64,000 nucleotides of DNA from an uncultured delta proteobacterium (lineage in GTDB: Bacteria > Myxococcota > UBA727 > VGSZ01). The notes beneath the pieces are model-generated. The model was not told the DNA's origin, searched no databases, and saw only the letters and a list, made by a program, of their open reading frames with translations. The first letter of the stretch is position 1, and each line of letters opens with the position of its first letter. This document shows positions 40,496 through 61,778 of this stretch, piece after piece. Made by a program: the position numbers and the translations under genes. The DNA is taken from the NCBI GenBank assembly GCA_963775425.1, contig CAVZJB010000009.1, positions 272,616-336,615 on the forward strand, in the 5' to 3' direction.

Positions 40496-40560
40496 TGACG
40501 GTCCGTCCGGCGGGAAGGAAACGGGCTGATGATCCTCTGCACGCCTTCCCCGGTCGGCCC

Positions 40561-41922: not shown

Positions 41923-41932
41923 AGGCAGCGGC

Positions 41933-43689: not shown

Positions 43690-44846
43690 CGCGCCCGCGT
43701 CGTCGACCGCGCGCGGGGCGCCCGCCCACGGGCCGGTGGGCCGCCGCGCCCGTCACCGCCCTCGTCCTCGCCGTCACCGGCGCGCTCGCGGGCTGCCCCG
43801 CGCCGGCGAGCGAGGATCCGTTCGAGCTCGTCATCGCCGCCAAGAAGGCGGCCGCCGACGTGCGCGCCGACGGCGCCCGCGTCGCCTACACCGACGGCCT
43901 GGAGGCGAGCAGCGACGGCCAGGGGGTCGGGGTCGACGTCGTCGTCGCCGAGCGCGGCGAGGAGATCCTGCGCGCGCCGGCCGACGTCGCCGTGCGCGGG
44001 ATGGCGCTCGGCAAGACCTCCGTGGCCACGCTCGAGCTCGCCGAGGCCGCCGCCGTCAATCAGCACGTGGTCATCCGTCCCCTCGACGGCGGCGACGCCA
44101 TCGATGTCCCTCGCACGGACGCGCCCCTCGCCCTCGCCGCCGTCGACGACGGCGCCGGCTACCTCTGGATCGAAGCGCGCCTCGACGGCACCGACGACAC
44201 CGGCGGCGGCGTCGACGGCCTCTATGTGCTCACGCTCGTCGAGGCCGGCGAGGACGGTGTGGTGACCAGGCGCACGCCCTTCGACGCCGGAGAGATCCGC
44301 GCCCCCGCCGCCGTCCTCGAGCTGTTCCCGCGCCCCTTCGGCGTGCTCGTCGCCGGTGACGACGTCTACTTCGGCTGGGACTCCGACCTCTGCCGCGGCG
44401 GCTCCGTGCTCTACCGCGTGAGCCGCGCCGACGGCCACGGCGTCGCGGAGTGGCGCGGGCGCGTCGCCGCCGTCGGCCCCGTCGACGGCACGACGTGCGA
44501 GTGCGACACCACCGTCGCCGACAACGTCACGGACCGCGGCCAGGCCGTCGCGCTGGACGCGGGGACACCGGTGGTGGTGGGCGGTGTCTTCGACTGCGCC
44601 TCCGTGAGCGCGGAGCGCGGCTTCGTGCGTGACGGCGAGGACAGCGCCGAGGTCGAAGACGCGCTCCGCTTCGCGGGCTTCTCGTCGAGCGGCGTCACGG
44701 CCACCACGCCCACGGGAGTGGTGAAGCTCGTCGGCGTCGGCGAGGGCGCCGTCGTGAACGCCCACTCGCGCGTGACCGGCCTCGCGGTGGACGGCGGCGA
44801 CGTGTTCTTCAGCCTCGAGGACGGCGTCTACCGCCTCACGCCGTGA
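43686..44846 (+). CDS. Hypothetical lipoprotein
   Basis: GTG start overlaps the previous stop (GTGA). Signal peptide with lipobox LAGC. Confidence 0.45.
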   Translation: MTRPRRRPRAGRPPTGRWAAAPVTALVLAVTGALAGCPAPASEDPFELVIAAKKAAADVRADGARVAYTDGLEASSDGQGVGVDVVVAERGEEILRAPADVAVRGMALGKTSVATLELAEAAAVNQHVVIRPLDGGDAIDVPRTDAPLALAAVDDGAGYLWIEARLDGTDDTGGGVDGLYVLTLVEAGEDGVVTRRTPFDAGEIRAPAAVLELFPRPFGVLVAGDDVYFGWDSDLCRGGSVLYRVSRADGHGVAEWRGRVAAVGPVDGTTCECDTTVADNVTDRGQAVALDAGTPVVVGGVFDCASVSAERGFVRDGEDSAEVEDALRFAGFSSSGVTATTPTGVVKLVGVGEGAVVNAHSRVTGLAVDGGDVFFSLEDGVYRLTP

Positions 44847-44906
44847 CGCGGCGGTCCGGCCGCCGTTGACCGCGAGCGCCCGGCGCGGTCTCACTGCACC
44901 CAGGGC

Positions 44907-45707
44907 ATGCGCTTCTTCAAGATCACCCGCGAGATCCTGCCGCGCTGGCAGGAGAAGCTCGAGGCGCTCGAGCAACTGAGCGTCTATCCCCTCGGCGCCG
45001 ACGCCTTTCGCCTCACGCACGGCGCGGACTACTTCGCGTTCTTCGAGCGCATGGGCGAGGTCCACTACTACGCGATCGAGGAGGGCGGCGCGCTCGCCGC
45101 GGTCGCTTGCGGCGTGTTGCGGCCGGCGTCGGTGCGGGCGCCGCGTCGCTGGTACGCCGCGGACCTGAAGGTGCACCCGGCCTTTCGTGGGAGACACCTG
45201 CCGATCACGCTGCTCCGCCGCGCGTTCCTCCAAAACTGGCTCCGCTGCGGGCGCGGGTACGCGGTGGCGATGGACCCGTCCGACGGGCGCGTGCCTCCGG
45301 GGGTGCGGCTGATGGCGCACTTCAAGTGGATCCCGATGTCATTGATGGCGCTCGCCAAGATCGACGTCTACGCCGCCGACGAGCACGGGATGAAGCGCGC
45401 CGCGCCGCTCATCGCGCGTGGAGGCGTGCGGCCTCGATACGTATCGCTCGCAGGGGTCAAGGACCTCGTGCTCGAGAGCTCCAAGGCGCCGCTCGATCTT
45501 CTTCACGTGTCGTTTGCGCCCACCGGCGACGACCGGGTCTACGAGGCGCCGCAACGCGGGGCCACGCACATGTGGTGCGTGCCACGTGAGCACGCGCTGG
45601 CCGGCGCGCTCGCCGCCGAGGGCTTCACGCCCACGGCGAGCGCGACGCTCTTGCACCACCGGCTCGCGCGTATGGATTGGGCGACGCTCGAGACCTGCGA
45701 GATCTGA
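44907..45707 (+). CDS. GNAT-like acyltransferase family protein (putative)
   Basis: WYAADLKVHPAFRGRHL resembles the GNAT acyl-CoA binding motif (R/Q-x-x-G-x-G/A). Confidence 0.4.
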   Translation: MRFFKITREILPRWQEKLEALEQLSVYPLGADAFRLTHGADYFAFFERMGEVHYYAIEEGGALAAVACGVLRPASVRAPRRWYAADLKVHPAFRGRHLPITLLRRAFLQNWLRCGRGYAVAMDPSDGRVPPGVRLMAHFKWIPMSLMALAKIDVYAADEHGMKRAAPLIARGGVRPRYVSLAGVKDLVLESSKAPLDLLHVSFAPTGDDRVYEAPQRGATHMWCVPREHALAGALAAEGFTPTASATLLHHRLARMDWATLETCEI

Positions 45708-45709
45708 AC

Positions 45710-47662
45710 GTGTGCGGCATCGTCGCCGTCCTGCGCCTCGGCGAGCGTCCGCTGCCCGGGGACGACGCGGTACGCGCGATGACCCGAGCCATCGCTCACC
45801 GCGGCCCCGACGGCGAAGGCTTCCATCGCGACGACGACGTCGCGCTCGGCGTGGTGCGGCTGGCGGTCGTCGACGTCGGGCACGGGCGGCAGCCGGCGCG
45901 CGGCTGCCGCGGCGCCGGGCCCGTGTCCGTCGTGAACGGCGAGCTCTACGAGCACCGCCCGCTGCGCGCGGAGCTCGCCGCGCGGCACGAGATCGTCGAC
46001 GCGTGCGACGCCACGCTGCTGCCGCATTTGTACGAGGACCACGGCGCCAACATGGTGCTGCACATGCACGGCATGTTCGCCTTTGCGCTGTGGGACCGGC
46101 GCGAGCGCACGCTGCTCCTCGGCCGCGACCGCCTCGGCATCAAACCGCTCTTCTTCGCCGTCACGCCCGACTTCCTCGTTGCTGCGTCGGAGGCAAAGGC
46201 GATCTTCGCCTCCGGCCTCGTCCAGCCGCGCATCGATCGCGACGCCGTCGACGACCTCTTCTCCCTGGGGTACCCGTGCCCGCCGCGCACGATGTTCGCC
46301 GGCGTCACTGCGGTGCCCCCGGGGCACACGGTGACGGCTCGCGCGGGCGGCGGCGCACAGCGAGGCCGCGTCGACGCCGCTCGCCGCTACTGGCGCGCGC
46401 CGCTGTCTCCGCCGGCGCACACCGGCCAACGAGGGTCGCCCGCGGGGTCGGCCGCCGACGTCCACGACGCCCTCGCCGCCGCCTTGCGCACGCACCTCGA
46501 CGCCGACGTCCCCGTGGCCACGTGGCTGTCCGGAGGGCTCGACTCGTCCGCGGTCTCGGCGCTCGCGCGCGAGGCCGCCGGCGCGCCGCTCCCCGCGTTC
46601 GCGCTCACGTTCCCGGGAGACCCCGAGGGGCTCGACGAGAGCGCACCCGCGCGCGCCGTCGCCCGCTTCCTCGGCGCGGACCTGGACGAGGTGCCCATGG
46701 GAGCTCCGGCGGCTTCGTTGCTCGAGCGCATGACGTGGCACCTCGAGCTCCCGCTCCTCGTCCCCGGCGCGCTCGGCGGCCTCCTGCTCTCCGAGCGGCA
46801 GCGCGCGCGAGGCTTCAAGGTCACGCTCACCGGCGACGGTGCCGATGAGGTGCTCGGCGGCTACGACGTGTTTCGCGCGAGCCGCGCGCGCCGGCTCCTC
46901 GGGGCGCGCGCGTTCTCCGCCGCCGTCGTCGCGGGCGACGCGCTCGGCCTCCTCTCGCCGCGCGGCATCGGTGCGTTCCTCGCGCAAAACGCCCGCGCGC
47001 CACGGACGGACATCGTCGCCCGCGCGTACGGCGGCGTGCGCCCACCCTGGCTCGAGCAGTGGGCGCTCCTCGACGTCGAGCGCGCGGCGCTCCTGTCGCC
47101 CGACGGCAGGCGCGTGCGCCCGATCGAAGAGGCGCCCGCGGGCTTCGCCGCTTTGGTGCGCGAGGACGCCGTCGCGCTCGATCCGCTCGACGCCGAGATC
47201 GCGCTGGAGCTGGAGACGCGCCTGCCCGCGTGGATCCTGGTCATCGGTGATCGCTCATCGATGGCCCACGGGGTCGAGGCCCGCTTGCCGTTCCTCGACG
47301 ACGACGTCGTGCGCACGCTCCTCGCCGTCCGGCCGGCGCTGAAGATGCGCGGGATGCGCGAGAAGGCCGTGCTGCGCGACGCCGTCGCGGGGCTGCTGCC
47401 GCGCGCCATCGTGCGGCGCAGGAAGCAGCCGTTCATGACGCCGATCGCGCCGTGGTTCTTCCCGCCGGGAGCTACGCCGCCCGCCCTGACGCGCGCGCGG
47501 CTCGAGGACGCCGGGCTGTTCGACGCCGCCGTCGTCGCGCGGCTCCTCACGCGTCTGCACACCTCGCGCCCCGGGACGCTCGAGCGCGTCCGGCTGGAGA
47601 TGGTGCTGATGCTCGTCCTCGGGACGCAGCTCCTGCACGCGTCTTTCGTGGCCAGGGCTTAG
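45710..47662 (+). CDS. Asparagine synthetase (glutamine-hydrolysing) family amidotransferase / amide- or beta-lactam-synthetase-like
   Basis: GTG start followed by Cys2 (MCGIVAV), as in Ntn glutaminases. PP-loop WLSGGLDSS. ~650 aa. Confidence 0.8.
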   Translation: MCGIVAVLRLGERPLPGDDAVRAMTRAIAHRGPDGEGFHRDDDVALGVVRLAVVDVGHGRQPARGCRGAGPVSVVNGELYEHRPLRAELAARHEIVDACDATLLPHLYEDHGANMVLHMHGMFAFALWDRRERTLLLGRDRLGIKPLFFAVTPDFLVAASEAKAIFASGLVQPRIDRDAVDDLFSLGYPCPPRTMFAGVTAVPPGHTVTARAGGGAQRGRVDAARRYWRAPLSPPAHTGQRGSPAGSAADVHDALAAALRTHLDADVPVATWLSGGLDSSAVSALAREAAGAPLPAFALTFPGDPEGLDESAPARAVARFLGADLDEVPMGAPAASLLERMTWHLELPLLVPGALGGLLLSERQRARGFKVTLTGDGADEVLGGYDVFRASRARRLLGARAFSAAVVAGDALGLLSPRGIGAFLAQNARAPRTDIVARAYGGVRPPWLEQWALLDVERAALLSPDGRRVRPIEEAPAGFAALVREDAVALDPLDAEIALELETRLPAWILVIGDRSSMAHGVEARLPFLDDDVVRTLLAVRPALKMRGMREKAVLRDAVAGLLPRAIVRRRKQPFMTPIAPWFFPPGATPPALTRARLEDAGLFDAAVVARLLTRLHTSRPGTLERVRLEMVLMLVLGTQLLHASFVARA

Positions 47663-47829
47663 GGCCCCCGAATGAACAACTCGATCGCCCTCGCGGCCGA
47701 TCCATCGCCGCTGGCTTCGTTGCTCGTCGGTCACGTGGCGACGGCCACGCTCCCTCCTCGCGCCTCGCCATCGGCGCGCCTCGACCGCGATCATCGACCG
47801 ACTTGTTCATTCGAGGGCCCTTAGCCCTC
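47653..47829. mobile_element. MITE-like palindromic element: ~34-bp imperfect terminal inverted repeats (GGGCCCCCGAATGAACAA / TTGTTCATTCGAGGGCCC) flanking ~100 bp, bounded by TTAG on both sides, lying exactly between two convergent TAG stops
   Basis: Seen in sequence: left arm 47653-47686, right arm 47789-47829; ~30 of 34 positions are complementary. Confidence 0.45.
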
Positions 47830-50800
47830 TAGATCGCGTCGGCCGCGCCGACGTCGGCCTGCGGGGCGGCGGCGAGGGAGCGCGGACGCGCGGGGCGCTT
47901 GTCGACGACCTCGTCGATGAGGCCCGTGATGCACGTGGCCATGCGCTCGATGTTCTCGCTCCGAAACAGCTCGAGGTGCGAGCCCTTCACCGTGACGACG
48001 TCGATGCGACCCTTGACCCAGCGGCGCCAGCCGTTGGTGGGATCGTCCATGCGCGTGGCCGGCCAGCGGAAGGGATGCTCGGCGACAAAGAGCAGGAGCG
48101 GCGCCGTCTCTCCGTTCTGTTTGGGCATGTACGCGAGCTGGGCCTGCGTGAGGATGGCCCAGATCTGCTTCATGCGATCTTCGCGCTCACGGTCGGCGCC
48201 GTCGACGGCGGGCGCGAGCAGCTCGCCGAGGCCGAGCTTGAAGAGCAAGCGGCGGCGCACGTTGTCGATGCGATCCTTCACGTAGTTGAAGCGGCCCAAG
48301 GCGTCACGCCTGCGCAGCTCCTCGACATGCGCGAGCGCGCGCTCCATGCGCGGAAGCTTCTCGGGATAGCCGGGCGCGAAGGCGTCGAACGCGACGATGG
48401 CGCCGACGTTCTTCCCGCGCCGGCGCAGCCGGTGCGCGAGCTCGTAGGCGACCATGGCCCCGAAGCTGTAGCCGCCGACGACGAGCTGCTGCCCCGACAG
48501 CCCGCGCGCGTCGAGCTCGCGCTCGTAGGCCGCGGCGATCTCCTCGACCGACTCGCGTGGCAGGTCTTCGCCGTCGGCGCCGATGGCGGTGAAGGCGTAG
48601 ACGGGTTGATCGGGCCCGAGCCGCTGCGCGAGCTCGCGAAAGATGAACACCTGGCCGCCCGCGCCGGACACGATGAGCAGCGGCGGGCGCGTCCCGTGCG
48701 CGTTCAACACGACGAGGTGGCTCTGCGGCTCGGACGTCGCGCGCTCGCCGTCGCCGAGGCTCTGCGCGAGCGCGGCGATGGTGGGCTTCGCCAGGATGCG
48801 CGACAGCGGGACGTTGATGCCCAGCTCCTTCTTCAGCCGCGACACCACCACGACCGCGAGCAGCGAGTGGCCGCCCATGTCGTCGAAGAAGTCGTCGTGA
48901 ACACCCACCGGCGCGCGCAAGACGTCGCTCCACAGGGCGACGAGCTTCTCCTCGAGCGGGGTGCGCGGTGGGGACAGCGCGCGCCGCTCGAGGACGAGCG
49001 CCGGATCAGGGAGCGCCGCGCGGTCGAGCTTGCCGTTGGAGGTGACCGGCAGGCGGTCGAGCCGCACCAGGGCCGAAGGCACCATGAAGTCCGGCAGCGC
49101 CGCAGCCACCGCCGCCTTCAACGACGGCGCGTCGAAGGGCTGCGCCGCATGGAGCGGCACGACGTACGCCACCACGGCCTTCGCGCCGGAGGCGTCGGGG
49201 CGCGCGACGCACACGACGTCGCGCACGCCGGGCTGCTTGCGCAGCACGGCTTCGATCTCGCCGAGCTCGACGCGGAAGCCGCGCACCTTCACCTGGAAGT
49301 CGGCGCGCCCGAGGAACTCCATGGTGCCGTCGTCCCAGAAGCGCGCGAGGTCGCCCGTCTTGTAGATGCGCTCGCCCGGGAGGAACGGATCGGGGAGGAA
49401 CCGCTCGGCGGTGAGCTCCTCGCGGTTGAGGTAGCCGTCGGCGAGGCAGAGGCCGCCGATGTAGAGGTCGCCGGCGATGCCGGTGGGCGCCGGGCGCATG
49501 TGGCGATCGAGGATGTAGTAGCGGGCGTTGTCGATGGGACGGCCGTAGGGGATGGAGCGCCACGACGGGTCTACGTGGCCGATGCGGTGGAAGTTCGACC
49601 AGATGGCGGCCTCGGTGGCGCCGCCGAACGACACGGGTTCCACACCCTCGAACACCTCGCGCAGGTGGTCGGGCAGCTTGACCGGGATCCAGTCGCCGGA
49701 CATGAGCGCGAGCCGCAGCGTCGACGACGGCGCGCGCGCCGGAAAGAACGGCGCGAGCCGCGCCAGCGCCGGCGGCGCGGAGTCCCAGATGGTGATGCCG
49801 GGCGCGGTGAGCTTCTTCACCAGGAGCTCCGGCTCGCGCAGCGTCTCCACCGAAGCGATCTCGACGACGGCGCCGGCGCCGAGCGCGCCGAAGACGTCGT
49901 AGACGGACAGGTCGAAGCTCGGGGACGTGACGAACAAGAGCTTGTCGCGCGGGCCGACGCTGAAGGTGCGGTTCACCCACTGCAGCGTGTTCGTCACCGC
50001 GCGGTGCGTGAGCACCACGCCCTTGGGCCTGCCGGTGCTGCCCGACGTGTAGATGGCGTAGCTCACGTCCCTCGAGGCGGCGACGCGCGCGGGCCGGGTG
50101 TCGGGAGCGCCCTGCACGTCCGCGCCGTCGACGCCCAGGATGGGGATGCCCGGCGGCGGCGCGCCGTCGCCGTGGCCCCACGGCAGCGACGACGACGTCA
50201 CCACCGCCACCGCTCGCGCGTCTTCGACCATGAAGCGCGCGCGCTCTTCGGGGTAGCCCGGGTCCACGGGCACATATGCCGCACCGGACTTGGCGATGCC
50301 GATCATCGTGGTGACGAGGTCGAAGTTGCGGTCGAGCAGGAACGCCACGTATTGGCCGGGCTTCACCCCGCGGGCGCGCAGCGCGTGGGCGAGGCGGTTG
50401 GCGCGCCGCTCCACCTCGGCGAAGGTGAGCGTCTCTCCCTCGAATTCCAGGGCGACGTCGTCAGGCCGCGCGTCCACCTGCTCCTCGAAGAGCGTGTGGA
50501 TGAGGATCTCGTCTGAAAACGGCGCGGCCGTGTCGTTCCAGCCGAAGACCTGCCGCTTGCGGGTCTCGTCGTCGAGGAGGTCGACGCGCGCGAGGGGCTT
50601 TTCGGGATCCGCCGCGACCTGCGCGCACACCGCGGAGATCTGCTCCACCAGCGCGCGCACGCGGGGCGTGTCGACCGCGCCTTCGTCGACGACGAGCGAC
50701 GCCTGTCCGCCGCTCAGGCGCAGCGCCAGGACCGCGCCCGGCGGGAGGGCCTCGCCGTCGTCGAGCAGGACGGCCACGCACGACAGCGCGCTCGTCTGGA

Positions 50801-52202
50801 GCGCGCGGCTGGGGGAGAGCACAGGGGTACGCGCGACGAGGTCGACGAGGTAGCCGCCGCGGCGGCGGAGCTCGTCGAGGTCCTTTCGCACCGCGCGCAC
50901 CAGCTCCGCGAAGCCGCGCCCCGCGTCCAGGCCGACGAACAACGGGACGGTGGGCGCCAACAAGGCCGAGGCGGCTTCGAAGCGCTTGCGCACGGGGCCG
51001 TCTACGAGGGCGACGCACAGCTCGTCGCGGTCGCACAGCGTGGCCATGGCGAAGGAGAACGCGGCGGTGGCTGCGGCCTCGATGTCATCGGCGAAGCGCG
51101 AGCGCAGCTCGGGCAGGGGGAGCGAGTGCACCGACGTTTGTCCCGGCGGCCCCGCCGCCGACAAGAACGGCACCGCCGGCGACTCCGCGCGCGCGAGGCG
51201 CTTGACGAAGAACGGCTCGGCCTCGGCGATCTCGCGGGTGATCGCCGCGCGGCCCTCGCGTCCGGGATCGACGATCTGTCCACCGGGCTTGAGTCCCAGG
51301 TAGTGCAGCGCCTCCTCGACGGAGATCTCGACTCCGCTCAGGAGCGACGTCCGCTCCACGCGCAGCGCCCCCTGGGCGCACGCCACCACGAAGGAGCGGG
51401 CGTCGGCCTCGAGGACGGTGCCCGGGCCCCCGCCCGCGCCGGACACCGACGCCTCACGCACGACCACCGCGCGCTCCCCCGCCGACGTCTTGTGCACGAG
51501 CTTGGCGAGGGCGAAGCGGTTGATGTACGGGCCCCAGTCGCAGGCGCGCACGAGCCGGTCGAGCTCGGCGGCCGTCTGGCTCCAGTCGAGAGTGGCCAGG
51601 GCCGCGGGGCGATCGTGACGCGAGAAGATCAGCCGCTCGCCGCCGGGGTTCGTCCCCTTCGGCTGGGGGATGCCCGGCGGCGCGCCGTGCTCGAGCTTCT
51701 CGACGAGAGACTTGAAGGCGTCGAGCGCGAGCGCGGCGTTCTTGATGTTGAGGGAGACGGAGCTCTCGCGCTCCTCGATGTCGACGTCGCGGCGCTCGAG
51801 GATGTCGCCGGTGTCGATGCCGTCGGCGAGGCGATGCCACACCACGGCGTGCGTGCGCTCGCCGCGCAGGAGCGCCCACGCCGAGCCGTGAATGCCCGCG
51901 TAGCGGGGCAGCGGTCCGTCGTGGAAATTGACGGCGTCGATGCGCGCCTTGGTGAAGTGCTCGGCCTTGAGGATGGCGGGGTACGTGATGGACAAGAGGA
52001 CGTCGATGTCGCCGGCGGCCATGAGCTCACCGATGCGCGCGCGCCCGTAGACCGGCACGTCCTTGCCCCGCGCCCACTCGGCGAGGGCCGGGTTGAGCGT
52101 GACGAGGCCGGCGAGGGCGTGCCCCCGCTCCAGGAGGAGCTCGCCGCACGAGACGGCGAGCGGCTCTTCTCCGAGGACGAGGCAGCGAAGGTGCGCGGGC
52201 AC
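47829..52202 (-). CDS. Non-ribosomal peptide synthetase, single module: formyltransferase-like domain, ~260-aa C-domain-like linker lacking HHxxxDG, adenylation, PCP, thioesterase
   Basis: Fmt-like NFHDGPLPRYAG. A-domain motifs YTSGSTGRPKG, YKTGDL, GRADFQVKVRGFRVELGEIE, NGKLDR. PCP motif DDMGGHSLL. TE motif GYSFG. Confidence 0.9.
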   Translation of the reverse strand: MPAHLRCLVLGEEPLAVSCGELLLERGHALAGLVTLNPALAEWARGKDVPVYGRARIGELMAAGDIDVLLSITYPAILKAEHFTKARIDAVNFHDGPLPRYAGIHGSAWALLRGERTHAVVWHRLADGIDTGDILERRDVDIEERESSVSLNIKNAALALDAFKSLVEKLEHGAPPGIPQPKGTNPGGERLIFSRHDRPAALATLDWSQTAAELDRLVRACDWGPYINRFALAKLVHKTSAGERAVVVREASVSGAGGGPGTVLEADARSFVVACAQGALRVERTSLLSGVEISVEEALHYLGLKPGGQIVDPGREGRAAITREIAEAEPFFVKRLARAESPAVPFLSAAGPPGQTSVHSLPLPELRSRFADDIEAAATAAFSFAMATLCDRDELCVALVDGPVRKRFEAASALLAPTVPLFVGLDAGRGFAELVRAVRKDLDELRRRGGYLVDLVARTPVLSPSRALQTSALSCVAVLLDDGEALPPGAVLALRLSGGQASLVVDEGAVDTPRVRALVEQISAVCAQVAADPEKPLARVDLLDDETRKRQVFGWNDTAAPFSDEILIHTLFEEQVDARPDDVALEFEGETLTFAEVERRANRLAHALRARGVKPGQYVAFLLDRNFDLVTTMIGIAKSGAAYVPVDPGYPEERARFMVEDARAVAVVTSSSLPWGHGDGAPPPGIPILGVDGADVQGAPDTRPARVAASRDVSYAIYTSGSTGRPKGVVLTHRAVTNTLQWVNRTFSVGPRDKLLFVTSPSFDLSVYDVFGALGAGAVVEIASVETLREPELLVKKLTAPGITIWDSAPPALARLAPFFPARAPSSTLRLALMSGDWIPVKLPDHLREVFEGVEPVSFGGATEAAIWSNFHRIGHVDPSWRSIPYGRPIDNARYYILDRHMRPAPTGIAGDLYIGGLCLADGYLNREELTAERFLPDPFLPGERIYKTGDLARFWDDGTMEFLGRADFQVKVRGFRVELGEIEAVLRKQPGVRDVVCVARPDASGAKAVVAYVVPLHAAQPFDAPSLKAAVAAALPDFMVPSALVRLDRLPVTSNGKLDRAALPDPALVLERRALSPPRTPLEEKLVALWSDVLRAPVGVHDDFFDDMGGHSLLAVVVVSRLKKELGINVPLSRILAKPTIAALAQSLGDGERATSEPQSHLVVLNAHGTRPPLLIVSGAGGQVFIFRELAQRLGPDQPVYAFTAIGADGEDLPRESVEEIAAAYERELDARGLSGQQLVVGGYSFGAMVAYELAHRLRRRGKNVGAIVAFDAFAPGYPEKLPRMERALAHVEELRRRDALGRFNYVKDRIDNVRRRLLFKLGLGELLAPAVDGADREREDRMKQIWAILTQAQLAYMPKQNGETAPLLLFVAEHPFRWPATRMDDPTNGWRRWVKGRIDVVTVKGSHLELFRSENIERMATCITGLIDEVVDKRPARPRSLAAAPQADVGAADAI

Positions 52203-52237
52203 GTCGTCGGATTATCACGACCTGCGGCGCCCGCGCA

Positions 52238-54094
52238 TTATCGGTAGCCACGTGCCTGCAGATCGAACATCTCGGCGTAACGACCGCGCTTGCTCATGAG
52301 CGTGTCGTGCGTGCCGCGCTCGACGACCCGGCCCCTCTCGAGCACGACAATCTGATCTGCCGTGCGCACCGTGGAGAACCTGTGCGAAATCACGATGCCG
52401 ATTCGCCCGCGCAACAGACCGCGCAGCTCGGCGAAGATTTCTGCCTCCGCGGCCGGGTCGAGGTTCGCCGTGGGCTCGTCGAGGACCCACACGTCGGCGT
52501 CGCGGTAGATGAGGCGTGCGAGCGCGAGGCGTTGCCATTGGCCCCCGCTCAAGTCGTGCCCTCCCTCGAACAAGCGGCCGACGACGGACCCCAGTCCGTG
52601 CCCGATCTCGTCGACGATGCCGTCCGCGCGCGCGGACGCGAGCGCGCGTTCCGCCCGCTCCCGGTCGAACGGCAAGGAGATCCGGCCGAAGCGCAAGACG
52701 TCCTGCACCTCGAGCTCGTAGGCGCCGTAGTCTTGGAACAGCACCCCGATCCTGTCGCGCAGGCGCTCGGGGTCGGCGGCGCGCGCGTCGACGGCGACGT
52801 CGACGCCGTCGACGGGGCCCGAGAAGACGATCCGCCCCTCGTCGGGATCGAAGAAGCGGCACAGGAGCTTCACCAGGGTGCTCTTGCCGGCGCCGTTTTC
52901 GCCCACCAGCGCGAGGATCTCGCCGGCGCGCACCTCGAGGTCGACGCCGGCGAGCGCGCCCCGCTCCTCGTCGTGGCCCGGGTACCGGAACGACACGTTC
53001 TCGAGCGCCACCCGCGTGATGCGCTCGGGGAGGGCCTTCGCGACGGCCGGGGCGCGAACGGTGGGCTCGATGGCGAGGAAGCTGAAGTAGTCGTCGATGA
53101 ACTGCGCGTGCTCGTCGACGGTGACCAGCGAGCCGAGCGTGGCGCCGAGGTTGCTCGTCAGGGCGGTGAAGGCGCCGAAGATCGCGGCGACGTCGCCGAT
53201 GCTGAGGGTGCCGCGGGTGCCGGCGCCGGCGATGAAGATGTAGGCGACCAACAAGAGCGAGGCGGAGCCGGCGCCGCCGAGGAGGTCGAGGACGTTGGCG
53301 TCGCGGTAGAGCCGCCGCTTTTGCTCGAGCCGATCGAGCGACATGGCCTTGGCCCGGTCGACCACGTGCTGCGCCAGGCCGAACGCGCGCACGTCCTTGG
53401 CGAAGTGCGGCTCCGACGCCACCTGCACCATGTAGTCGTGCTCGCGCTCGCGGCGGGTGGTGCGCCAGAAGAGCTCGTAGAAGCGGCGGTTGGTGCGGAG
53501 CTTCATCAACGCCACCGGCAGCACGGAGAGCACGCCGAGGGGGACGAGCCGCGCGTCCAGGACGAACAGCGCGGAGCACAGGGTGACGAGCGTGATCGTC
53601 GACGAGAAGATGTGGATGAGCGTGAGCGTGAGGTTGTACGGGCGCCAGCCCACGTCGGCGCGGGCGCGCTGCAGCCTGTCGTGCCACGCGGGGTCGTCGA
53701 GGAGCGCGAGGTCGGCGGTGGCGACGTGCAGGAGGAACTTCTTGTGGGCGGACATCCAGACGCGGTCGGAGAACACGTCGTGGACGCGCCCGGTGAACGC
53801 CTGCAGCGATTGATTGAGGACGGCGAGGCCGCCGAGCGCGAGCACCGGGAAGAGCACCCGGTGATCCCGCCACGACGACGGGTGCGCCGCGATGCCGTCG
53901 ATGAGCCTGCCCGTGGCGAGGAGCGTCAGCGGCGTCAGCACGGCGCTCACCACGGTGAGCGCGAGGACGGTGCCCATCTGCCGCGGCGCCGCCTCCCAGG
54001 CGAGCGCCAGCGTGGCGCGCACGTTCCGCCAGATGCGCGCGGGTCGCGGCAGCATCTTGCGCACGGGCGGCGTCTCCTGGGCAGGCGCGGTCAT
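52238..54094 (-). CDS. ABC transporter, fused permease/ATP-binding exporter
   Basis: Six TM segments followed by Walker A GENGAGKST, signature LSGGQWQRLALAR and Walker B VWVLDEPT. ATG at 54092-54094. Confidence 0.8.
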   Translation of the reverse strand: MTAPAQETPPVRKMLPRPARIWRNVRATLALAWEAAPRQMGTVLALTVVSAVLTPLTLLATGRLIDGIAAHPSSWRDHRVLFPVLALGGLAVLNQSLQAFTGRVHDVFSDRVWMSAHKKFLLHVATADLALLDDPAWHDRLQRARADVGWRPYNLTLTLIHIFSSTITLVTLCSALFVLDARLVPLGVLSVLPVALMKLRTNRRFYELFWRTTRREREHDYMVQVASEPHFAKDVRAFGLAQHVVDRAKAMSLDRLEQKRRLYRDANVLDLLGGAGSASLLLVAYIFIAGAGTRGTLSIGDVAAIFGAFTALTSNLGATLGSLVTVDEHAQFIDDYFSFLAIEPTVRAPAVAKALPERITRVALENVSFRYPGHDEERGALAGVDLEVRAGEILALVGENGAGKSTLVKLLCRFFDPDEGRIVFSGPVDGVDVAVDARAADPERLRDRIGVLFQDYGAYELEVQDVLRFGRISLPFDRERAERALASARADGIVDEIGHGLGSVVGRLFEGGHDLSGGQWQRLALARLIYRDADVWVLDEPTANLDPAAEAEIFAELRGLLRGRIGIVISHRFSTVRTADQIVVLERGRVVERGTHDTLMSKRGRYAEMFDLQARGYR

Positions 54095-55056
54095 CAATAT
54101 CCCGCGGCGACGTCGACCACGCCGAGGAGCGGCTCCCGCGCGGCGTAGCGGCGGACGTTGTCGCGCACGCGCTCCTTCAGGAGCGGCACCGCCATCTCGG
54201 GCGTGTTCCCGACGTGCGGCGTGATGACGCAGCGCTCGCTGCGCCACAGGGGGTGATCCTCCGGGAGCGGCTCGGGATCGGTGACGTCGAGCGCGGCGCC
54301 GCCGATGACGCCGCGCGCGAGCGCGTCGACGAGGGCGCCGGTGTCGACGAGGGCGCCGCGCGCGACGTTCACGAGCCAGGCGTGCCGGGGCATGCACGCG
54401 AGCTCCGCGGCGCCGATCATCCCCCGCGTCTCCGGCGTCAGCGCCGCGGCGAGGAACACGACGTCCGCCCCGGCGAACGCCTCGCGCCGCGCTTCGAACG
54501 TCACCGTCCGCACCAGACCGTCGCCGCCGGCGAACGGGACGCTCCGGCGCCTGACGACGGTGAGCGCGCAGCGAAACGGCGCCAGCAGCGCGACCAGGCT
54601 CCGGGCGATGCCGCCGGCGCCGACGATGACGACCTTCCCGCCGAGGAGCGAGAGCCCATCCGCGGGCCCGCCGTTCGGCCGCACCCAGGAGCGCGCGAGC
54701 GCGCGTGCCTTCAGGTTGCGCAGCCCGGCGAGCGCCAGGGCGAGCGCGTGCTCGGCGACGGGGGCGGCGTACACGCCCTGTCCCGCGGTGAAGCGGTGGT
54801 TGTCGTCGAGGACGCTGAGGAACGGCTCGATGCCCGCCCACGGCAACTGCACCCAGCGGATGTTGTCGTGCAGATCGAGGAGGGCGCGCAGGTCGGCGGC
54901 CCCCGTCGAGCTCGCCCAGACGAGACCCTCGGCGTCCTCGGGGGAAGCGAGCGCGGCGCCGCCTTCGACGACGGCGTCCTCGAGGAACGGGCGCACGCCC
55001 TTCGGCGCCACGCAGACCTTCAGCGCGCTCACGGCGCCGATGATGCACGGCGCCAC
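54094..55056 (-). CDS. D-isomer-specific 2-hydroxyacid dehydrogenase family protein (NAD-binding)
   Basis: GxGxxG motif VGAGGIARS. Motifs GAALDVTDPEP and ITPH. Confidence 0.7.
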   Translation of the reverse strand: MAPCIIGAVSALKVCVAPKGVRPFLEDAVVEGGAALASPEDAEGLVWASSTGAADLRALLDLHDNIRWVQLPWAGIEPFLSVLDDNHRFTAGQGVYAAPVAEHALALALAGLRNLKARALARSWVRPNGGPADGLSLLGGKVVIVGAGGIARSLVALLAPFRCALTVVRRRSVPFAGGDGLVRTVTFEARREAFAGADVVFLAAALTPETRGMIGAAELACMPRHAWLVNVARGALVDTGALVDALARGVIGGAALDVTDPEPLPEDHPLWRSERCVITPHVGNTPEMAVPLLKERVRDNVRRYAAREPLLGVVDVAAGY

Positions 55057-55138
55057 CGGCCGCGGGAAGCGCGGAAGCGAAAGCGCGCCCCACGGGGGGC
55101 GCGCGCAGATCAGCGACCGGAGGGAGCGGCCGCGCAGA

Positions 55139-57064
55139 TCACAGGGTCTTGAGGAACGCGACGAGGTCGGCCTTGTCCTGGAAGGACAGGTTGGAGCCGT
55201 GGCCCATCTTGTCGGTGGCCACCAGGCGCTCGACGACGTCCTCGAGCGTGGCCGCGGAGCCGTCGTGCAGGTACGGCGCGCTCTCGATGAGCCCGTGCAG
55301 CACCGGCGTGGCGAACTCCGAGGACCAATCGAGGTTGTCGCCGCCGGTGCCGACGCTGTGGGTGAGGTTGTCGGTGAAGGCGTCGCCGGCGTGGCACTGG
55401 CCGCAGCCGGCGCTGCCGTAGAACAGCTCCTCGCCGTGGGCGACGGCCTGCGCGTCGAGGCCGCTCGGCGGCATGGGTGCCGGGATCTGGTCGAGGAATT
55501 TGCCGACCTTGTTCATGGCGGTGGCGTCGAGGCCGTTGCCGCCCATGCGGCCCACGATGGTGACGTCGCTGATGCCGGCCATGTTCGGCACGCTCTGATC
55601 CCAGTGGAAGGGCTCGGTGCCGAGGATGCCGCCCCACAGCGCGGGCGCGTTGCGCGGGCCCTCGGCGAAGTGCCAGGTGGTGCCGTCGGGGCCGCCGCCC
55701 GGGTGGCAGGAGTCGCAGGAGATGGCGCCGAACTTCGTGAGGTCGTCGTTGACGCTGTAGAAGAGCACGCGGCCCTCACGCACGTCGGCGGGCAGCACGG
55801 GCGCCGCAACGGTGAACGTGTTGTCGACGGAGATCTTCTTGAGCGCGCCGGCGCTGCCCCCGGCGTAGCGAGACTTGGCCGAGGCGTCGGCCGGCACCGC
55901 GAAGCTCGAGATGGTGTCGTCGAAGGCGTTGTAGACGTACGCCGTGGTCCCGTCGGGGGAGACCTGGATGGACTCGACGCCGACCTTCAGCGGCACCACC
56001 GCGACGATGGACGGCTCGCCCTCGCCGATCACCGGCCGGCGCACGATGACGTTGCCCGAGCCGCGCGCGACCACGAGCTGGAGCTTGCCGCCGTCGACGG
56101 TGGCGATCTCCTGCGGCCCGTTGAAGGTCTCGTCGTGCAGGAGGTTGCGGTTGAGCGCGTCGACCACGGGCGCGGCGTCACCGGCGTGCTCGGGGGCGCT
56201 GCCGTTGGCCTCCTCGAGGGGCCGGTTCTCGTCGGACAAGAGCGAGCCCGACGCCGGGTCCACGCGGCTGACGGCCGGGTTCACCGCCGGGTAGCCCGTG
56301 GGGCCGTCGACGTAATACGTGACCGAGGGCTGACCGGCGAAGTTGGTGCCGCCGAGGAACTGGGCCGGGTCGTTGTTGCACTCGACGTGGGGGACGACGA
56401 CGCCGTCGCCGTCCGCGCTCGCGGTGATGCTCCCCATCTGGTTGGGGAAGAAGAACTGCTTGGAGGGCAGGTGCATGTCGACGTCGGCCGCGACGTTGTC
56501 GCCGTCGATGATGGACACGTAGCCCGCGGTGAAGTGGGTGACGGCGACGCGGCCGTCCTCGAGGCGCACGATGCCGCGCGGGTCGCCGTGGTGGAGCGTG
56601 ATGCGCGAAGCGACGCGCGTCGGATCCGCGAGGTCGATGCGCGCGAGGTCGCCCTCGCCGGCGACGGCGACGAGCACGGCGTGACCGACCTGAACGAGGC
56701 CGAAGGGATCGCTGCCGACGTCGGCGGTGCCGTCCACGGTGCCCTTCTCGACGTTCACCACCGAGACGGTGCCGGCGTAGCGCGCGCTCACGGCGACGCG
56801 GCCGTCGTCGAGGACGGTGAGGCGGTGGGGATACCCGGGCACCGCGACCTCGCCGAGCTTGGCGCCGCTGTGGGCGTCGACGGCGCGCACCAGGTCATGG
56901 TCGGCGAGGGCGACGTAGAGAGTCTTTCCGTCCTTGGAGATCTGCATGCGGCCGGTCTGCGGCGCGCTCGCCGGACCGATCTTCACGTCGGGCTCGCAGC
57001 CCGATGCCAGCGAGAGGGAGAGCAGCGCGATGGGTACGGCGACGGCGAGGTGTCGAACGAGCAT
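55139..57064 (-). CDS. Lipoprotein with YVTN-type beta-propeller repeats and C-terminal di-heme cytochrome c domain
   Basis: Lipobox LASGC. CDSCH and CGQCH heme motifs. Confidence 0.65.
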   Translation of the reverse strand: MLVRHLAVAVPIALLSLSLASGCEPDVKIGPASAPQTGRMQISKDGKTLYVALADHDLVRAVDAHSGAKLGEVAVPGYPHRLTVLDDGRVAVSARYAGTVSVVNVEKGTVDGTADVGSDPFGLVQVGHAVLVAVAGEGDLARIDLADPTRVASRITLHHGDPRGIVRLEDGRVAVTHFTAGYVSIIDGDNVAADVDMHLPSKQFFFPNQMGSITASADGDGVVVPHVECNNDPAQFLGGTNFAGQPSVTYYVDGPTGYPAVNPAVSRVDPASGSLLSDENRPLEEANGSAPEHAGDAAPVVDALNRNLLHDETFNGPQEIATVDGGKLQLVVARGSGNVIVRRPVIGEGEPSIVAVVPLKVGVESIQVSPDGTTAYVYNAFDDTISSFAVPADASAKSRYAGGSAGALKKISVDNTFTVAAPVLPADVREGRVLFYSVNDDLTKFGAISCDSCHPGGGPDGTTWHFAEGPRNAPALWGGILGTEPFHWDQSVPNMAGISDVTIVGRMGGNGLDATAMNKVGKFLDQIPAPMPPSGLDAQAVAHGEELFYGSAGCGQCHAGDAFTDNLTHSVGTGGDNLDWSSEFATPVLHGLIESAPYLHDGSAATLEDVVERLVATDKMGHGSNLSFQDKADLVAFLKTL

Positions 57065-57331
57065 GGTGTGAAGTCTCCCCAGATGACGAACGTCGGACGA
57101 ACAGAAGCCGGCAAGGCGCGCTCAGAGAACCAAAACACGTGCCATGCGCTCGTGTGCTGTGCCACCGCGCACGGACGCGATCCTGGATCACCCCCCGGCG
57201 TGTGGGGCGAAATCCATGTGTGACAATTGTGTCGTGCGACGAAGATCTGTGGCGCGGATTCAATGGGTCGCGGGAGTGTCAGGTGCCGGTTCCCGGACGA
57301 GCTGCACGCAACCGTCGGGCGGCCGGTCGAA

Positions 57332-58552
57332 TCAGTCCGCCTGCGGCGGTTCCTCTTCGCTCGCCCGCCGCGTGCGCACCCAGGCGTCGGAGCGCTTCCA
57401 GGGACGGGCGACCACGAGCTTCCACAAGACGTACGCCGGCGCCGTCAGCAGAGCGAAGAGGCCGGCGACGCCGGTGCCGGAGAACGCCACGCCGCGCAGG
57501 ACGTAGGCCGCGAGCGACAGCGTCGACAGCGCCCACAGCGGCCACGCCGGCGACGGCCCGCCGGCGACGAAGACGTGGGCGCCCTCGACGGCGAGGCCGG
57601 CGACGACGACGAGCGCGGGGTACGAGATCGGCGGGACCATGAGGTCGCAGGCGAGATTGAAGAGCAGCAGCGAGCGCTGCGCCACCGCCGCCTTCAGCAC
57701 GCGCGGGAGGAGCGTGCGCATCAGGCCGAAGCGGCCGCCCTCCCAGCGGCGCCGCTGCGACAGCGCGGTCCCGGCGCTCACCGGCGCGTCGGAGCGGATC
57801 CACGTCTCCGGAGCGAACGCCACGCGGACGCCGTTCATCCCGAGCCGCACGCCGTACTCGACGTCCTCGACGACGCCGTACACCTCGTGCGGCACGCGCT
57901 CGAGGCACTCCCGTGAAAAGGCCATGCCCGTGCCGCGCAGCCCGACCGAGAGGCCGAGCCGCTCGCGCCCGAGCGAGCGCACGCCGTTGATCATCGCCAT
58001 CGCGATGGCCTGCAGGCGCGGCCGCCAGCCCGCGCCCGGGTTCTTCACGGCGTTTTCGACCTGCATCGCGAGGTCGCCGGCGACCACGCGGGCGCCCACC
58101 GCGCGCCAGAGGTTGCCGGCGACGATGGTGTCGGCGTCGACGACGATGACGCCCTCGACGCGCTCGTCGCCCTCGAGCGCCAGCGCGTGCGCGAACGCGG
58201 CCTCGAGCGCGTAGCCCTTGCCGCGGCGCACGTCGTCCCTGCGCTCGAGCACGCGGGCGCCGGCCTCGCGGGCGAGGGTGGCGGTGTCGTCGGTGCAGTT
58301 GTCGGCGACGACGAGGACGATCTTCTTGTCCGCGGGCGCGTCCGCGGCGAGCAGGCTCTTCACCGTGGCCGCGATGCCGTCCTTCTCGTTGTGCGCCGGC
58401 ACCACGCAGACGAGGCGCGGCGTGTCTGCGTCGGCGGGGGCCGGCGGAGGCCGCTTGCGCCACGACAGGAGCGTGAGGAACCCGAGGTACAGCCACACCG
58501 GCAACACGGCGACGGCGAGCACCCACGAGAGGACCTCGAGCGCCGCCGGCAT
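57332..58552 (-). CDS. Family 2 glycosyltransferase, membrane-embedded processive type
   Basis: DNCTDD and DAD motifs and a Q-R-R-R-W (QxxRW) motif, with flanking TM helices. Confidence 0.7.
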   Translation of the reverse strand: MPAALEVLSWVLAVAVLPVWLYLGFLTLLSWRKRPPPAPADADTPRLVCVVPAHNEKDGIAATVKSLLAADAPADKKIVLVVADNCTDDTATLAREAGARVLERRDDVRRGKGYALEAAFAHALALEGDERVEGVIVVDADTIVAGNLWRAVGARVVAGDLAMQVENAVKNPGAGWRPRLQAIAMAMINGVRSLGRERLGLSVGLRGTGMAFSRECLERVPHEVYGVVEDVEYGVRLGMNGVRVAFAPETWIRSDAPVSAGTALSQRRRWEGGRFGLMRTLLPRVLKAAVAQRSLLLFNLACDLMVPPISYPALVVVAGLAVEGAHVFVAGGPSPAWPLWALSTLSLAAYVLRGVAFSGTGVAGLFALLTAPAYVLWKLVVARPWKRSDAWVRTRRASEEEPPQAD

Positions 58553-58599
58553 CACCGCACGTTCTCGTCGAGGCCGTGTGCGCGCCGCATGGCGGGAGC

Positions 58600-59721
58600 A
58601 TGCCATCGGCCGGCGCGGCGCGGAAACGAGAAGCGCGCGGTGTCCGCGACGGCGGCGGGGCGTCGGGCACGGCGTGGTACGCTCGCGCGGTGGGGCACGG
58701 CACCGTCGTCGCGATCGTGGCCGTCGTCGTCGCCGGCGAGGGCTGCGCGGGCTGCAACGGCACGTTCACCCTGTCGTGCGCCGCCTCCACCGACTGCCCC
58801 GACGGCCTGTCCTGCGCCCCCGACGACATCTGCCGCCCCCATGACGCCGGCTCCGGCGACGGCGGCCCCCCCGTCGACACAGGCCCCACGGGCGACGGCG
58901 GCTCCCCCGGCGACGGCGGCCCCGTCGACGGCGGGCCCCCCGTCGACGGCGGCGAGGGCGAGGGAGAAGGAGAGGGCGAGGGGGAAGGCGAGCAGAGCGC
59001 CGCGAGCTGCGCCGCCGCGCTCGCCGCCGACCCGGCCGCGCCGAGCGGCATCTATCGCATCGGCGGCGCCGGCGTCGAGTGCGACATGACCACAGCGGGC
59101 GGCGGCTGGGCGCTCTTGTTCCGCTTCGACGCGCAGACGGACGACTGCCCCGCGGGGCTCGTCCGCGACGCCGCCAGCGGGGGCTGCGGACGCCCGCTGG
59201 ACGCGGCGCAGACGTCGCTGTTCCTGCCCGCGCCCGAGCCCTTCACGGAGCTGCGCGGCGAGGTCCGCGCGCTCGGCTTCGGCTCGCCCGACGCGTTCTT
59301 CGACACCGCGCCCACCATCGACGGCAACTACGGCGACGGCATCAGCTTCACCGTGGACTCGCCGCGCGTCCACGTCTTCACCCTCGCCCACGCCATCGCC
59401 GACGGCGCGAGCGGGTTCACCGTCCATCGCTGTCCGTGCGCGGGCGGAGATCCCCCGCCGGGCTTCGTCGGCACCGCCTACCTCTGCGAGGCGGCCACCA
59501 CCGCGTTCGTCGGCGGCGCGCGCACGCTCGACACCACCGACGTCCTGTGGGACGGGGCCGATCTCTTCCCGGGATGCGAAGGCGCGCCCGAGTCCGCGCC
59601 CGACTTCCAGGTCGCGCTCGCGGCCGAGGACCCCGGCCCCGTCGAGTTGCGCATCCTCCACAACGAGGTGAGCAGCGACGAGGACACGTACATCACCCGC
59701 GCGGAGCTCTGGGTGCGCTGA
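58600..59721 (+). CDS. Secreted protein with Cys-rich N-terminus, GEGEGE linker and fibrinogen-related (FReD) C-terminal domain; start uncertain
   Basis: GIYRIGGAGVECDMTTAGGGWALLFR matches the fibrinogen C-domain core (VYCDMTTDGGGWTV). Confidence 0.5.
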   Translation: MPSAGAARKREARGVRDGGGASGTAWYARAVGHGTVVAIVAVVVAGEGCAGCNGTFTLSCAASTDCPDGLSCAPDDICRPHDAGSGDGGPPVDTGPTGDGGSPGDGGPVDGGPPVDGGEGEGEGEGEGEGEQSAASCAAALAADPAAPSGIYRIGGAGVECDMTTAGGGWALLFRFDAQTDDCPAGLVRDAASGGCGRPLDAAQTSLFLPAPEPFTELRGEVRALGFGSPDAFFDTAPTIDGNYGDGISFTVDSPRVHVFTLAHAIADGASGFTVHRCPCAGGDPPPGFVGTAYLCEAATTAFVGGARTLDTTDVLWDGADLFPGCEGAPESAPDFQVALAAEDPGPVELRILHNEVSSDEDTYITRAELWVR

Positions 59722-59989
59722 CATACGCGCGCTGCGCGGCCTGCGCCGACGACGCGCGGCCGAGCTGCTCCCGCAGCGTCCGCTCCGCCGCGCCGGCGGC
59801 GACGGTGCACGCGTGGACGAGCCGGAGCAGCACCGTCCGGTCCTCGAGCGTGAGGCGGCAGAGGCCGGCCTGCGCGCACGCGGTGGTCGCGGCCTCGAGC
59901 GCTTCGCCCGCACCGACGACGTCGCCCTCGGCGAGCTTCTGCTGTGCGTGCGCGAGCCGATCGCGCAGGTGCTCCTCGACGCGCGTCAT
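59693..59989 (-). CDS. Hypothetical helical protein downstream of fliS (possibly FliT-like)
   Basis: ATG overlaps the fliS stop (ATGA). 98 aa. Confidence 0.35.
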   Translation of the reverse strand: MTRVEEHLRDRLAHAQQKLAEGDVVGAGEALEAATTACAQAGLCRLTLEDRTVLLRLVHACTVAAGAAERTLREQLGRASSAQAAQRAYVSAPRAPRG

Positions 59990-61700: not shown

Positions 61701-61778
61701 GGCGCTCTCCAAGAGGGGTGAACGAGGACGAAGCCGCCGCACGGATCACCCGGGTCCGTGCGGCGGCTTCAGGAGCGC

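Follow-up and report, generated by a model that had tools for sequence, protein, structure and literature searches.

A putative self-contained N-formylating nonribosomal peptide synthetase module from an uncultured myxococcotal bacterium and its apparently uncharacterised subfamily

The 64,000-nt stretch of DNA analysed here (contig CAVZJB010000009.1 of an uncultured delta proteobacterium, positions 272,616 to 336,615; "the window" below means this whole stretch) carries on its minus strand a gene for a stand-alone nonribosomal peptide synthetase (NRPS) module. By Pfam, NCBIfam and profile comparison the encoded protein consists, in this order, of an Fmt/ArnA-like formyltransferase domain (F), the C-terminal lobe of a condensation domain (C*), an adenylation domain (A), a peptidyl carrier protein domain (PCP) and a type I thioesterase (TE). 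With a probability of roughly 0.55, we read it as a self-contained one-module N-formylating NRPS, which would load cysteine or a close analogue, formylate it and release or transfer the product. It is a member of a coherent subfamily of stand-alone F-C*-A-PCP-TE enzymes that seems to be uncharacterised, and this subfamily in turn forms part of a large family of proteins sharing the F-C* unit.

Results and discussion

The gene and its architecture

The NRPS gene is genuine: the open reading frame (ORF) of 1457 aa extends over 47829..52202 (minus strand) from a GTG start, and its codon positions have the signature of a coding frame, with a G+C content of 0.94 at third (GC3) and 0.48 at second positions (GC2) in a window of ~72% G+C. 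An earlier note on this DNA, made from the letters and the ORF list, had described this ORF, and we recovered it together with its coding pattern and every motif quoted there. NFHDGPLP lies at aa 92-99, ADGIDTGD at aa 127-134, FDLSVYD at aa 763-769 and SFGGATEAAIW at aa 858-868. While its observations were correct, the note overstated how atypical the module is, because the architecture is that of a family with more than 1000 cluster representatives. For annotators, the absent HHxxxDG motif, the A5 motif with GGATE and the pocket starting DLY are signatures of this family rather than anomalies.

A two-subdomain formyltransferase at the N-terminus

The formyltransferase domain (aa 1-300, 51303..52202, minus strand, as for all coordinates within this gene) has both subdomains, a Rossmann-like catalytic N-terminal part (Pfam Formyl_trans_N, aa 60-155, E 1.4e-11) and Formyl_trans_C (aa 203-297, E 1.1e-08). 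ArnA was the top NCBIfam model (E 7.5e-23), and the best PDB sequence matches were to methionyl-tRNA formyltransferases (E 5e-15), sugar N-formyltransferases and ArnA, whereas the F domain of LgrA was matched with an E value of only about 0.01. An AlphaFold model of aa 1-580, with 15 homologues as input, reached a mean predicted local distance difference test score (pLDDT) of 88.5 and a predicted template modelling score (pTM) of 0.85. The catalytic residues are N92 (51927-51929), H94 (51921-51923) and D130 (51813-51815). N92 and H94, both within NFHDGPLP, were invariant in an alignment of 15 relatives as well as in a second, more diverse set; D130 of the DGIDTGD motif was invariant in the former and nearly invariant in the latter. 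The domain thus looks catalytically competent, and profile-HMM annotation, which the earlier note had proposed as a check of its Fmt-like N-terminal domain, matched formyltransferase families, so that the contrary outcome did not occur. In one relative, P0024, the formyltransferase motif is degenerate (N92C, with Gly in the D130 column).

The best matches in both sequence and structure, the N-terminal domain of ArnA and methionyl-tRNA formyltransferase, extend over both subdomains and have the same catalytic triad. They act, however, on a sugar nucleotide and on Met-tRNA, respectively, neither is fused to NRPS domains, and their folate-binding motif SLLP...RG reads GPLP...AG in the window protein. 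The initiation module of linear gramicidin synthetase, LgrA (F-A-PCP), which has been shown biochemically to formylate its carrier-bound amino acid and which served us as the model for the mechanism, likewise places a formyltransferase fold with the catalytic Asn/His/Asp ahead of the first A domain. Nevertheless, the window domain is of the full two-subdomain type and not of the small LgrA type, since it comprises ~300 aa including Formyl_trans_C and is followed by a C-lobe of ~250 aa, while the LgrA domain consists of one subdomain of ~193 residues fused directly to an A domain with its first residue at about position 205. Downstream of its PCP, LgrA has a condensation domain; in the window protein the PCP is followed by the TE and a stop codon, and domain annotation of the neighbouring genes revealed no adjacent NRPS gene. 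Hence, the LgrA-type assignment made in the earlier note did not hold, and the formylated product that it had predicted is still what the domain content best suggests.

The region between F and A is a condensation C-lobe

In the region between F and A (aa ~300-565), Pfam gave nothing but a borderline hit to the final 35 positions of its Condensation model. A profile built from 12 homologues, however, matched residues 261-478 of McyB (E 1.5e-11) and residues 255-472 of Txo2 (E 8.6e-11), which are the C-terminal halves of condensation domains in solved C-A structures. A motif search found neither HHxxxD nor DxxxxDxxS anywhere in the 1457-aa protein. Instead of a two-lobed catalytic fold, only the C-lobe is present (~255-478 of the reference domains), isolated, free of N-lobe motifs and directly N-terminal to the initiating A domain, as in domains of the C*/ADA type. 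The region (C*, aa ~315-560, 50523..51260) therefore does not represent a condensation domain whose active site has mutated, but an intact C-lobe from which the whole N-lobe is missing. The earlier note had recognised half a condensation domain of ~260 aa without the catalytic histidine motif, which is correct, but its description as a C-like linker understates a clean C-lobe that is kept in more than 1000 representatives. We also considered a cyclisation domain and ruled it out by the single lobe and the missing DxxxxD motif.

Isolated condensation C-lobes without N-lobe or HHxxxDG also precede the first A domain in ACV synthetase (C*) and in Lys2-type reductases (ADA). In ACV synthetase, deletion experiments showed that C* is needed for the function of the first module (PMC7884236). 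There C* sits at the very N-terminus, whereas in the window protein it is sandwiched between formyltransferase and A domain; the likeness is taken from the published description and not from an alignment. C* is not catalytic. Because this lobe retains the face with which condensation domains contact the A domain, it is probably kept as a scaffold that holds the formyltransferase where the active site of a condensation domain would sit.

The adenylation domain has a near-cysteine code

The A domain (aa 566-1065, 49008..50507) was recognised by the Pfam models AMP-binding (aa 572-925, E 3e-76) and AMP-binding_C (aa 982-1058, E 1.1e-13) and by TIGR01733 (409 bits). Its A4-A5 pocket segment had its best PDB matches in BmdB (E 2.4e-32), FmoA3 (3.2e-32) and PchE (2e-30), with the next match at 1e-15. 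All three come from cyclisation modules, and BmdB and PchE activate cysteine. In residue-by-residue alignments the window domain shares with BmdB and PchE the clade signature FDLSVYD, ITIWNS (ITIWxS), SGDWIP and (S/V)LGGATEA(S/G)IWS, whereas A5 of FmoA3 reads GGPTE. The A5 motif of the window protein, SFGGATEAAIWS, with FGGATEAAIW, is consequently normal for this clade and was called divergent in the earlier note on the basis of a sequence that is indeed there.

The alignment columns that give DLYNLSLIW for BmdB give DLYDLSFIW for the window protein, and its full specificity code, DLYDLSFIWK (D764, L765, Y768, D807, L833, S835, F859, I867, W868 and K1058), is identical to the cysteine code DLYNLSLIWK at 8/10 positions, the differences being N278D and L322F. 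The pocket does start with D-L-Y, as noted earlier, but the statement that it matches no standard code was wrong: a canonical code, which had been named as the finding that would go against the unusual pocket, is largely what the alignment yielded. Likewise, an unusual substrate is hard to reconcile with a near-cysteine code and with same-architecture homologues that have the exact cysteine code DLYNLSLIWK (P0138) or DLYNMSLIWK (P0022). DLYDMSLIWK is the commonest code in the stand-alone subfamily, from which the window protein departs only at L299, also present in P0138, and at F322; N278D occurs in 8/11 aligned members and Phe at 322 in the window protein alone. The A domain most probably activates L-cysteine, as judged from its pocket residues, or another small polar L-amino acid, given that Asp278 could leave room for Ser, 2,3-diaminopropionate (Dap) or a similar substrate. 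It differs from the BmdB/PchE type, which has Asn278, Leu322 and a preceding cyclisation (Cy) domain, in lacking the latter: F-C* stands in its place, and DxxxxD is absent from the protein.

Carrier and thioesterase domains

The PCP domain (aa 1085-1147, 48762..48950; Pfam PP-binding, E 9.3e-15) contains the phosphopantetheine attachment site in the motif GGHSL; its residue S1113 (48864-48866) was invariant in the subfamily alignment. The thioesterase domain (aa 1174-1422, 47937..48683; Pfam PF00975, Thioesterase, E 4.3e-24) is a type I alpha/beta-hydrolase with a GxSxG motif, GGYSFG, around the nucleophile S1246 (48465-48467) and with an invariant H1409 (47976-47978). Its PDB matches were generic NRPS and polyketide synthase thioesterases including Pks13, and this search gave no clue to the release chemistry.

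The thioesterase nucleophile varies within the subfamily. While the window protein has Ser, Cys takes its place (G[GA][LW]C[AF]G) in 6/11 stand-alone members, namely P0019, P0021, P0022, P0024, P0063 and P0161 (loci L006, L010, L003, L009 and L008). Neighbouring genes were readable for 5/6 of these members, and a membrane acyltransferase gene of the Acyl_transf_3 (AT3) or MBOAT family follows 4/6 of them.

An abundant family of F-C* proteins

The family came to light when 1.84 billion cluster representatives were scanned exhaustively with HMMER, using aa 1-560 as the query and a cut-off of E ≤ 1e-30, and not through a word-indexed homologue search, which even with a diverse profile returned only 17 matches, all shorter than ~1000 aa and without a named characterised relative. 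The scan matched the F-C* unit in 1043 representatives, and among the best 150 of them nearly all sufficiently long proteins align over aa ~5-559 of the query, that is, over F plus the C-lobe. The alignment runs contiguously through both subdomains of F and the C-lobe with NFHDxPLP invariant, which places the window protein in the F-C*-A family. We mapped the domains of 184 sequences, comprising the 150 representatives, earlier matches, cluster members and the proteins of the window and of locus L001. One class consists of F-C*-A-PCP proteins of ~1200 aa whose codes vary (Gly, Ser and others); in another, with the same domain order but a length of ~1570 aa, a luciferase-like monooxygenase splits a Gly-type A domain. 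The remaining classes are multi-module synthetases with F-C* and the stand-alone F-C*-A-PCP-TE proteins, which are 1400-1500 aa long and number about a dozen. Because the unit precedes A domains of many codes in one-module as well as multi-module proteins, a general role of F-C* as an N-terminal capping starter suggests itself. In the pair P0084/P0184 (4379 aa), the unit is internal in P0084, in the order A-PCP-A-PCP-F-C*-A-PCP.

The window protein is a stand-alone member: its 1457 aa lie within the range of ~1400-1500 aa of this group, it has a single module ending in a TE, and falls under the code DLY[D/N]xSLIWK and the A5 motif SLGGATEAAIWS of this subfamily, with Phe322 as described above. 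Full-length identity to ten stand-alone members ranged from 34 to 50%. The closest genome match was L001, from a metagenome-assembled genome (MAG) of the Polyangiaceae, with 47% identity over 1427 aa, and a scan of species-representative genomes matched a single locus (43% identity); a search for the exact protein retrieved no identical record. The F-C* unit occurs on plasmids as well: 80 records, most of them rhizobial, contain it, under no other annotation than generic NRPS or "MupA/Atu3671 LLM". In full-text literature searches on the stand-alone architecture and its relatives (F-A-PCP-TE variants, Atu3671, formyltransferase with luciferase-like monooxygenase) we found nothing.

A 2022 review described F domains as very scarce, with three known peptide products made with their help. 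Contrary to this picture, a larger starter unit, in which an ArnA/Fmt-like domain is joined to a condensation C-lobe, is common in genomes and metagenomes, and the window protein would represent an abundant, essentially undescribed class of formylating starter units with a self-contained one-module subfamily within it. The loaders of oxazole polyketides, OzmO, CongA, PtxE and RizA, are one-module proteins with an N-terminal F as well; PtxE (1154 aa), OzmO and CongA have been described as F-A-PCP loaders and proposed to make formyl-glycyl-S-PCP. The many ~1200-aa proteins of the F-C* family, some with Gly codes, resemble these loaders, and 1154 aa is the length expected for F, C*, A and PCP together, a placement of the loaders in the same family that is based on length and description only. 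The loaders activate glycine and pass it to a polyketide synthase without a TE, however, whereas the window protein ends in one. In the large sister class with a split A domain (P0007, P0014, P0029, P0040, P0043 and the plasmid matches H4-H6), a luciferase-like monooxygenase of the MupA/Atu3671 family sits within the Gly-type A domain that comes after F-C*; it would be a chemical curiosity if an N-formyl-glycyl intermediate subsequently underwent alpha-hydroxylation.

Membrane acyltransferases next to related genes

A membrane acyltransferase lies immediately downstream of the NRPS gene in five of the ten related loci with readable context: an MBOAT protein in L006, AT3 proteins in L009 and L011, an A-PCP-AT3 fusion in L008 and a homologous A-PCP fusion in L003, whose membrane domain was assigned by similarity to L008. 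Two of these loci, L008 and L011, are exopolysaccharide clusters: both contain genes for Wza-type Poly_export and BBP2_2 proteins, to which L011 adds Wzz, Bac_transf and glycosyltransferase family 2 (GT2) genes. The fusions (L008:4329-7022 and L003:14374-16824), in which AMP-binding and PP-binding domains are joined to an Acyl_transf_3-type membrane domain, are 34% identical, and their genes are translationally coupled to the respective F-C*-A-PCP-TE gene; a carrier-fed AT3 acyltransferase is unusual.

The pairing of an A domain and carrier with a neighbouring MBOAT or AT3 protein in these relatives is reminiscent of DltABCD, and DltA models were among the matches of the window A domain. Yet Dlt has neither a formyltransferase nor a thioesterase and consists of separate proteins, whereas F-C*-A-PCP-TE is one protein. 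Searches with the L006 MBOAT and L009 AT3 proteins as tblastn queries gave no match in the window, and the loci closest to the window protein (L001 and L004/L005) have no such membrane acyltransferase either. By tblastn across the four related loci compared in this way (L001-L005) and by called genes in the others, no neighbour was common to all related loci, and the NRPS therefore must work with primary metabolites only.

Proposed mechanism and alternatives

The analysis shows which domains and folds are present, that the catalytic residues are conserved and to which family the protein belongs; from this we infer the formyl donor, the order of steps, the cysteine substrate and the fate of the product. 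The A domain would activate a small polar L-amino acid, L-cysteine being the most probable one, and load it onto the phosphopantetheine arm of the PCP, which would then swing the aminoacyl thioester to the N-terminal ArnA/Fmt-like domain. There a formyl group, presumably from N10-formyl-tetrahydrofolate (N10-formyl-THF), would be transferred to the alpha-amine by analogy with LgrA, yielding N-formyl-cysteinyl-S-PCP. The TE would take the N-formyl-aminoacyl group onto Ser1246 and release it to water or to an acceptor nucleophile, and the product may leave the cytoplasm through the adjoining MsbA-like ABC exporter. A compact enzyme of ~1450 aa that needs no partner NRPS would be convenient for studying how a C-lobe scaffolds a non-homologous tailoring domain, and it equally suits the questions of what N-formyl-cysteinyl thioesters are used for and whether NRPS modules feed membrane acyltransferases in exopolysaccharide clusters.

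Several observations weigh against this proposal. The replacement of SLLP...RG by GPLP...AG weakens the assignment of the probable donor N10-formyl-THF. The few multi-module relatives with an internal F-C* fit a pure starter role poorly. Asp278 in most members and Phe322 in the window protein could indicate another small polar amino acid, and it is not obvious what biological purpose the release of N-formyl-cysteine by hydrolysis would serve. Finally, the Cys nucleophile in half of the subfamily and the membrane acyltransferases next to half of the loci hint at chemistry beyond hydrolysis.

One alternative, which is compatible with our proposal, concerns the substrate. L-serine, L-2,3-diaminopropionate or alpha-methylserine might be activated, with Asp278 contacting the side-chain hydroxyl or amine. 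The prevalence of N278D in the subfamily fits this option, as does FmoA3, an equally good relative of the pocket segment (E 3e-32) that activates alpha-methyl-L-serine and not Cys; moreover, codes for basic substrates, for example the Orn code DVGEIGSIDK, can have an acidic residue at 278. But same-architecture homologues with Asn278 have the cysteine code, and the remaining pocket positions (L236, Y239, S301, I330 and W331) conform to the Cys pattern, so that we regard a non-cysteine substrate as a minority option, with about one chance in four. Slightly less probable, and still speculative, is that the module decorates cell-surface glycans as a cytoplasmic N-formyl-aminoacyl donor from which a membrane acyltransferase or the TE transfers the group, in Dlt-like fashion, to an exopolysaccharide or glycolipid. 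The stand-alone enzymes might then constitute an unrecognised route by which an N-formylated amino acid, probably N-formyl-cysteine, is attached to exopolysaccharides or envelope glycoconjugates, with the AT3/MBOAT proteins as transferases or, in the window, the MsbA-like exporter as the exit route. If true, this would be a formylating, NRPS-based counterpart of D-alanylation by Dlt; in a sub-variant, released N-formyl-cysteine would be an exported low-molecular-weight thiol. The acyltransferases beside half of the readable loci and the exopolysaccharide clusters of L008 and L011 argue for such a route, and the window itself has an EpsU-like GT2 protein, an MsbA-like or glucan-type ABC exporter and an AsnB homologue that matches a PEP-CTERM amidotransferase model. 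In addition, the window TE resembles that of Pks13, which transfers an acyl chain to a sugar. On the other hand, tblastn with the L006 MBOAT and L009 AT3 proteins found no counterpart in the window, the closest relatives lack the membrane acyltransferase as well, the Dlt system requires no thioesterase, the GT2 and AsnB proteins score below the NCBIfam cut-offs, and we know of no exopolysaccharide with an N-formyl-cysteinyl group.

Release by cyclisation appears improbable. Here, the TE or spontaneous chemistry would convert the N-formyl-cysteinyl or seryl thioester into a 2-unsubstituted thiazoline-4-carboxylate or a beta-(thio)lactone. N-formyl-Cys has both groups required for a thiazoline, comparable formyl-glycyl loaders feed oxazole formation, and the Cys nucleophile of six subfamily members is otherwise rare and found in ring-forming thioesterases such as ObiF1; the window TE, though, has an ordinary Ser, the protein has no cyclisation-domain motif, and no cyclodehydratase of the OzmP/CongE type was among the neighbours examined. 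Very little speaks for the remaining readings. That of the earlier note, an LgrA-type initiation module in which the condensation domain is degenerate, A5 mutated, the pocket non-standard and the substrate unusual, agrees with the formyltransferase fold and motifs and with the missing HHxxxDG, but is largely refuted by the intact C-lobe of more than 1000 representatives and by an A5 and a pocket typical of the Cys clade. Just as improbable is a dead formyltransferase remnant in an enzyme that only thioesterifies and releases, or proofreads, its amino acid. The degenerate motif of P0024 and the change of SLLP to GPLP could be taken in its favour; however, the window protein and almost all of its relatives, which span 27-50% identity, retain N92, H94 and D130, and GPLP was invariant in the first alignment, which therefore argues for purifying selection on a working site.

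Genomic context in the window

Upstream of the NRPS gene on the same strand lies an MsbA-like ABC exporter with fused membrane and ATPase domains (52238..54055, minus strand; Pfam ABC_tran and ABC_membrane; NCBIfam MsbA, 247 bits), the start codon of which is uncertain (54055, 54064 or 54094). A gap of 35 bp separates its end from the start of the NRPS gene, and because of this spacing on the same strand the two genes are probably co-transcribed. An alternative ORF at 52215-53873 is in the wrong frame, as the codon-position G+C favours the exporter in the frame of ORF 52238-55093. Farther upstream on the minus strand, Pfam identified a D-2-hydroxyacid dehydrogenase (54094-55056) and a 641-aa protein (55139-57064) with a beta-propeller and a C-terminal di-haem MauG/CCP-like domain, which also gave weak matches to models of the hydrazine synthase beta and gamma subunits. 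They are followed by the EpsU-like GT2 glycosyltransferase (57332-58606, minus strand; NCBIfam EpsU, E 4.6e-108, 362 bits, below the model cut-off). A functional link of these genes (54094..58606) to the NRPS is unproven.

Downstream, a convergent six-gene operon (40402-47662, plus strand; Pfam and NCBIfam) encodes a DUF6986 protein (malate-synthase/HpcH-like), a DUF3419 methyltransferase-like protein, a haem-oxygenase-like di-iron enzyme (HDO, 42940-43689), a 386-aa protein, a GNAT-like protein and an AsnB-type amidotransferase, the latter also matching the PEP-CTERM amidotransferase model below the NCBIfam cut-off. The operon looks like a small biosynthetic cluster. We compared 11 window neighbours with L001-L005 by tblastn and found nothing beyond generic ABC ATPase similarity, and on this evidence rejected both the HDO/GNAT/AsnB operon and the ABC exporter as conserved partners of the NRPS.

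Some other genes of the window deserve mention. A 406-aa protein without a Pfam match (11152-12372, minus strand) is 30% identical (E 1e-28) to the product of a 413-aa gene 3′ of the L006 MBOAT gene, and its gene directly follows that of a 622-aa AMP-binding ligase (12436-14304, minus strand). The flagellar genes fliS and fliD and two flagellin-like genes are located at 59986-63708 (minus strand); they are notable because the nearest relatives of the window NRPS come from Polyangiaceae/Myxococcota MAGs. These bacteria are generally regarded as non-flagellated. A Gly/Pro/Asp-rich, probably secreted protein without a Pfam match (58576-59721, plus strand) has a fibrinogen-C-like motif, CDMTTAGGGWALL, and a (GE)n run. 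The stretch of 81% G+C at 24-27.6 kb was considered as an exotic element, which could be ruled out, since it encodes the Ala/Arg-rich coiled coil of an SbcC homologue; this SbcC-like ATPase (24057-27539, minus strand), with long ORFs on both strands, adjoins an SbcD nuclease homologue (27684-28973, minus strand) and is ordinary. The region 35132-39807 (minus strand) is devoted to purine catabolism, with a fusion of allantoicase and OHCU decarboxylase and a membrane urate-oxidase-like protein (Urate_ox_N).

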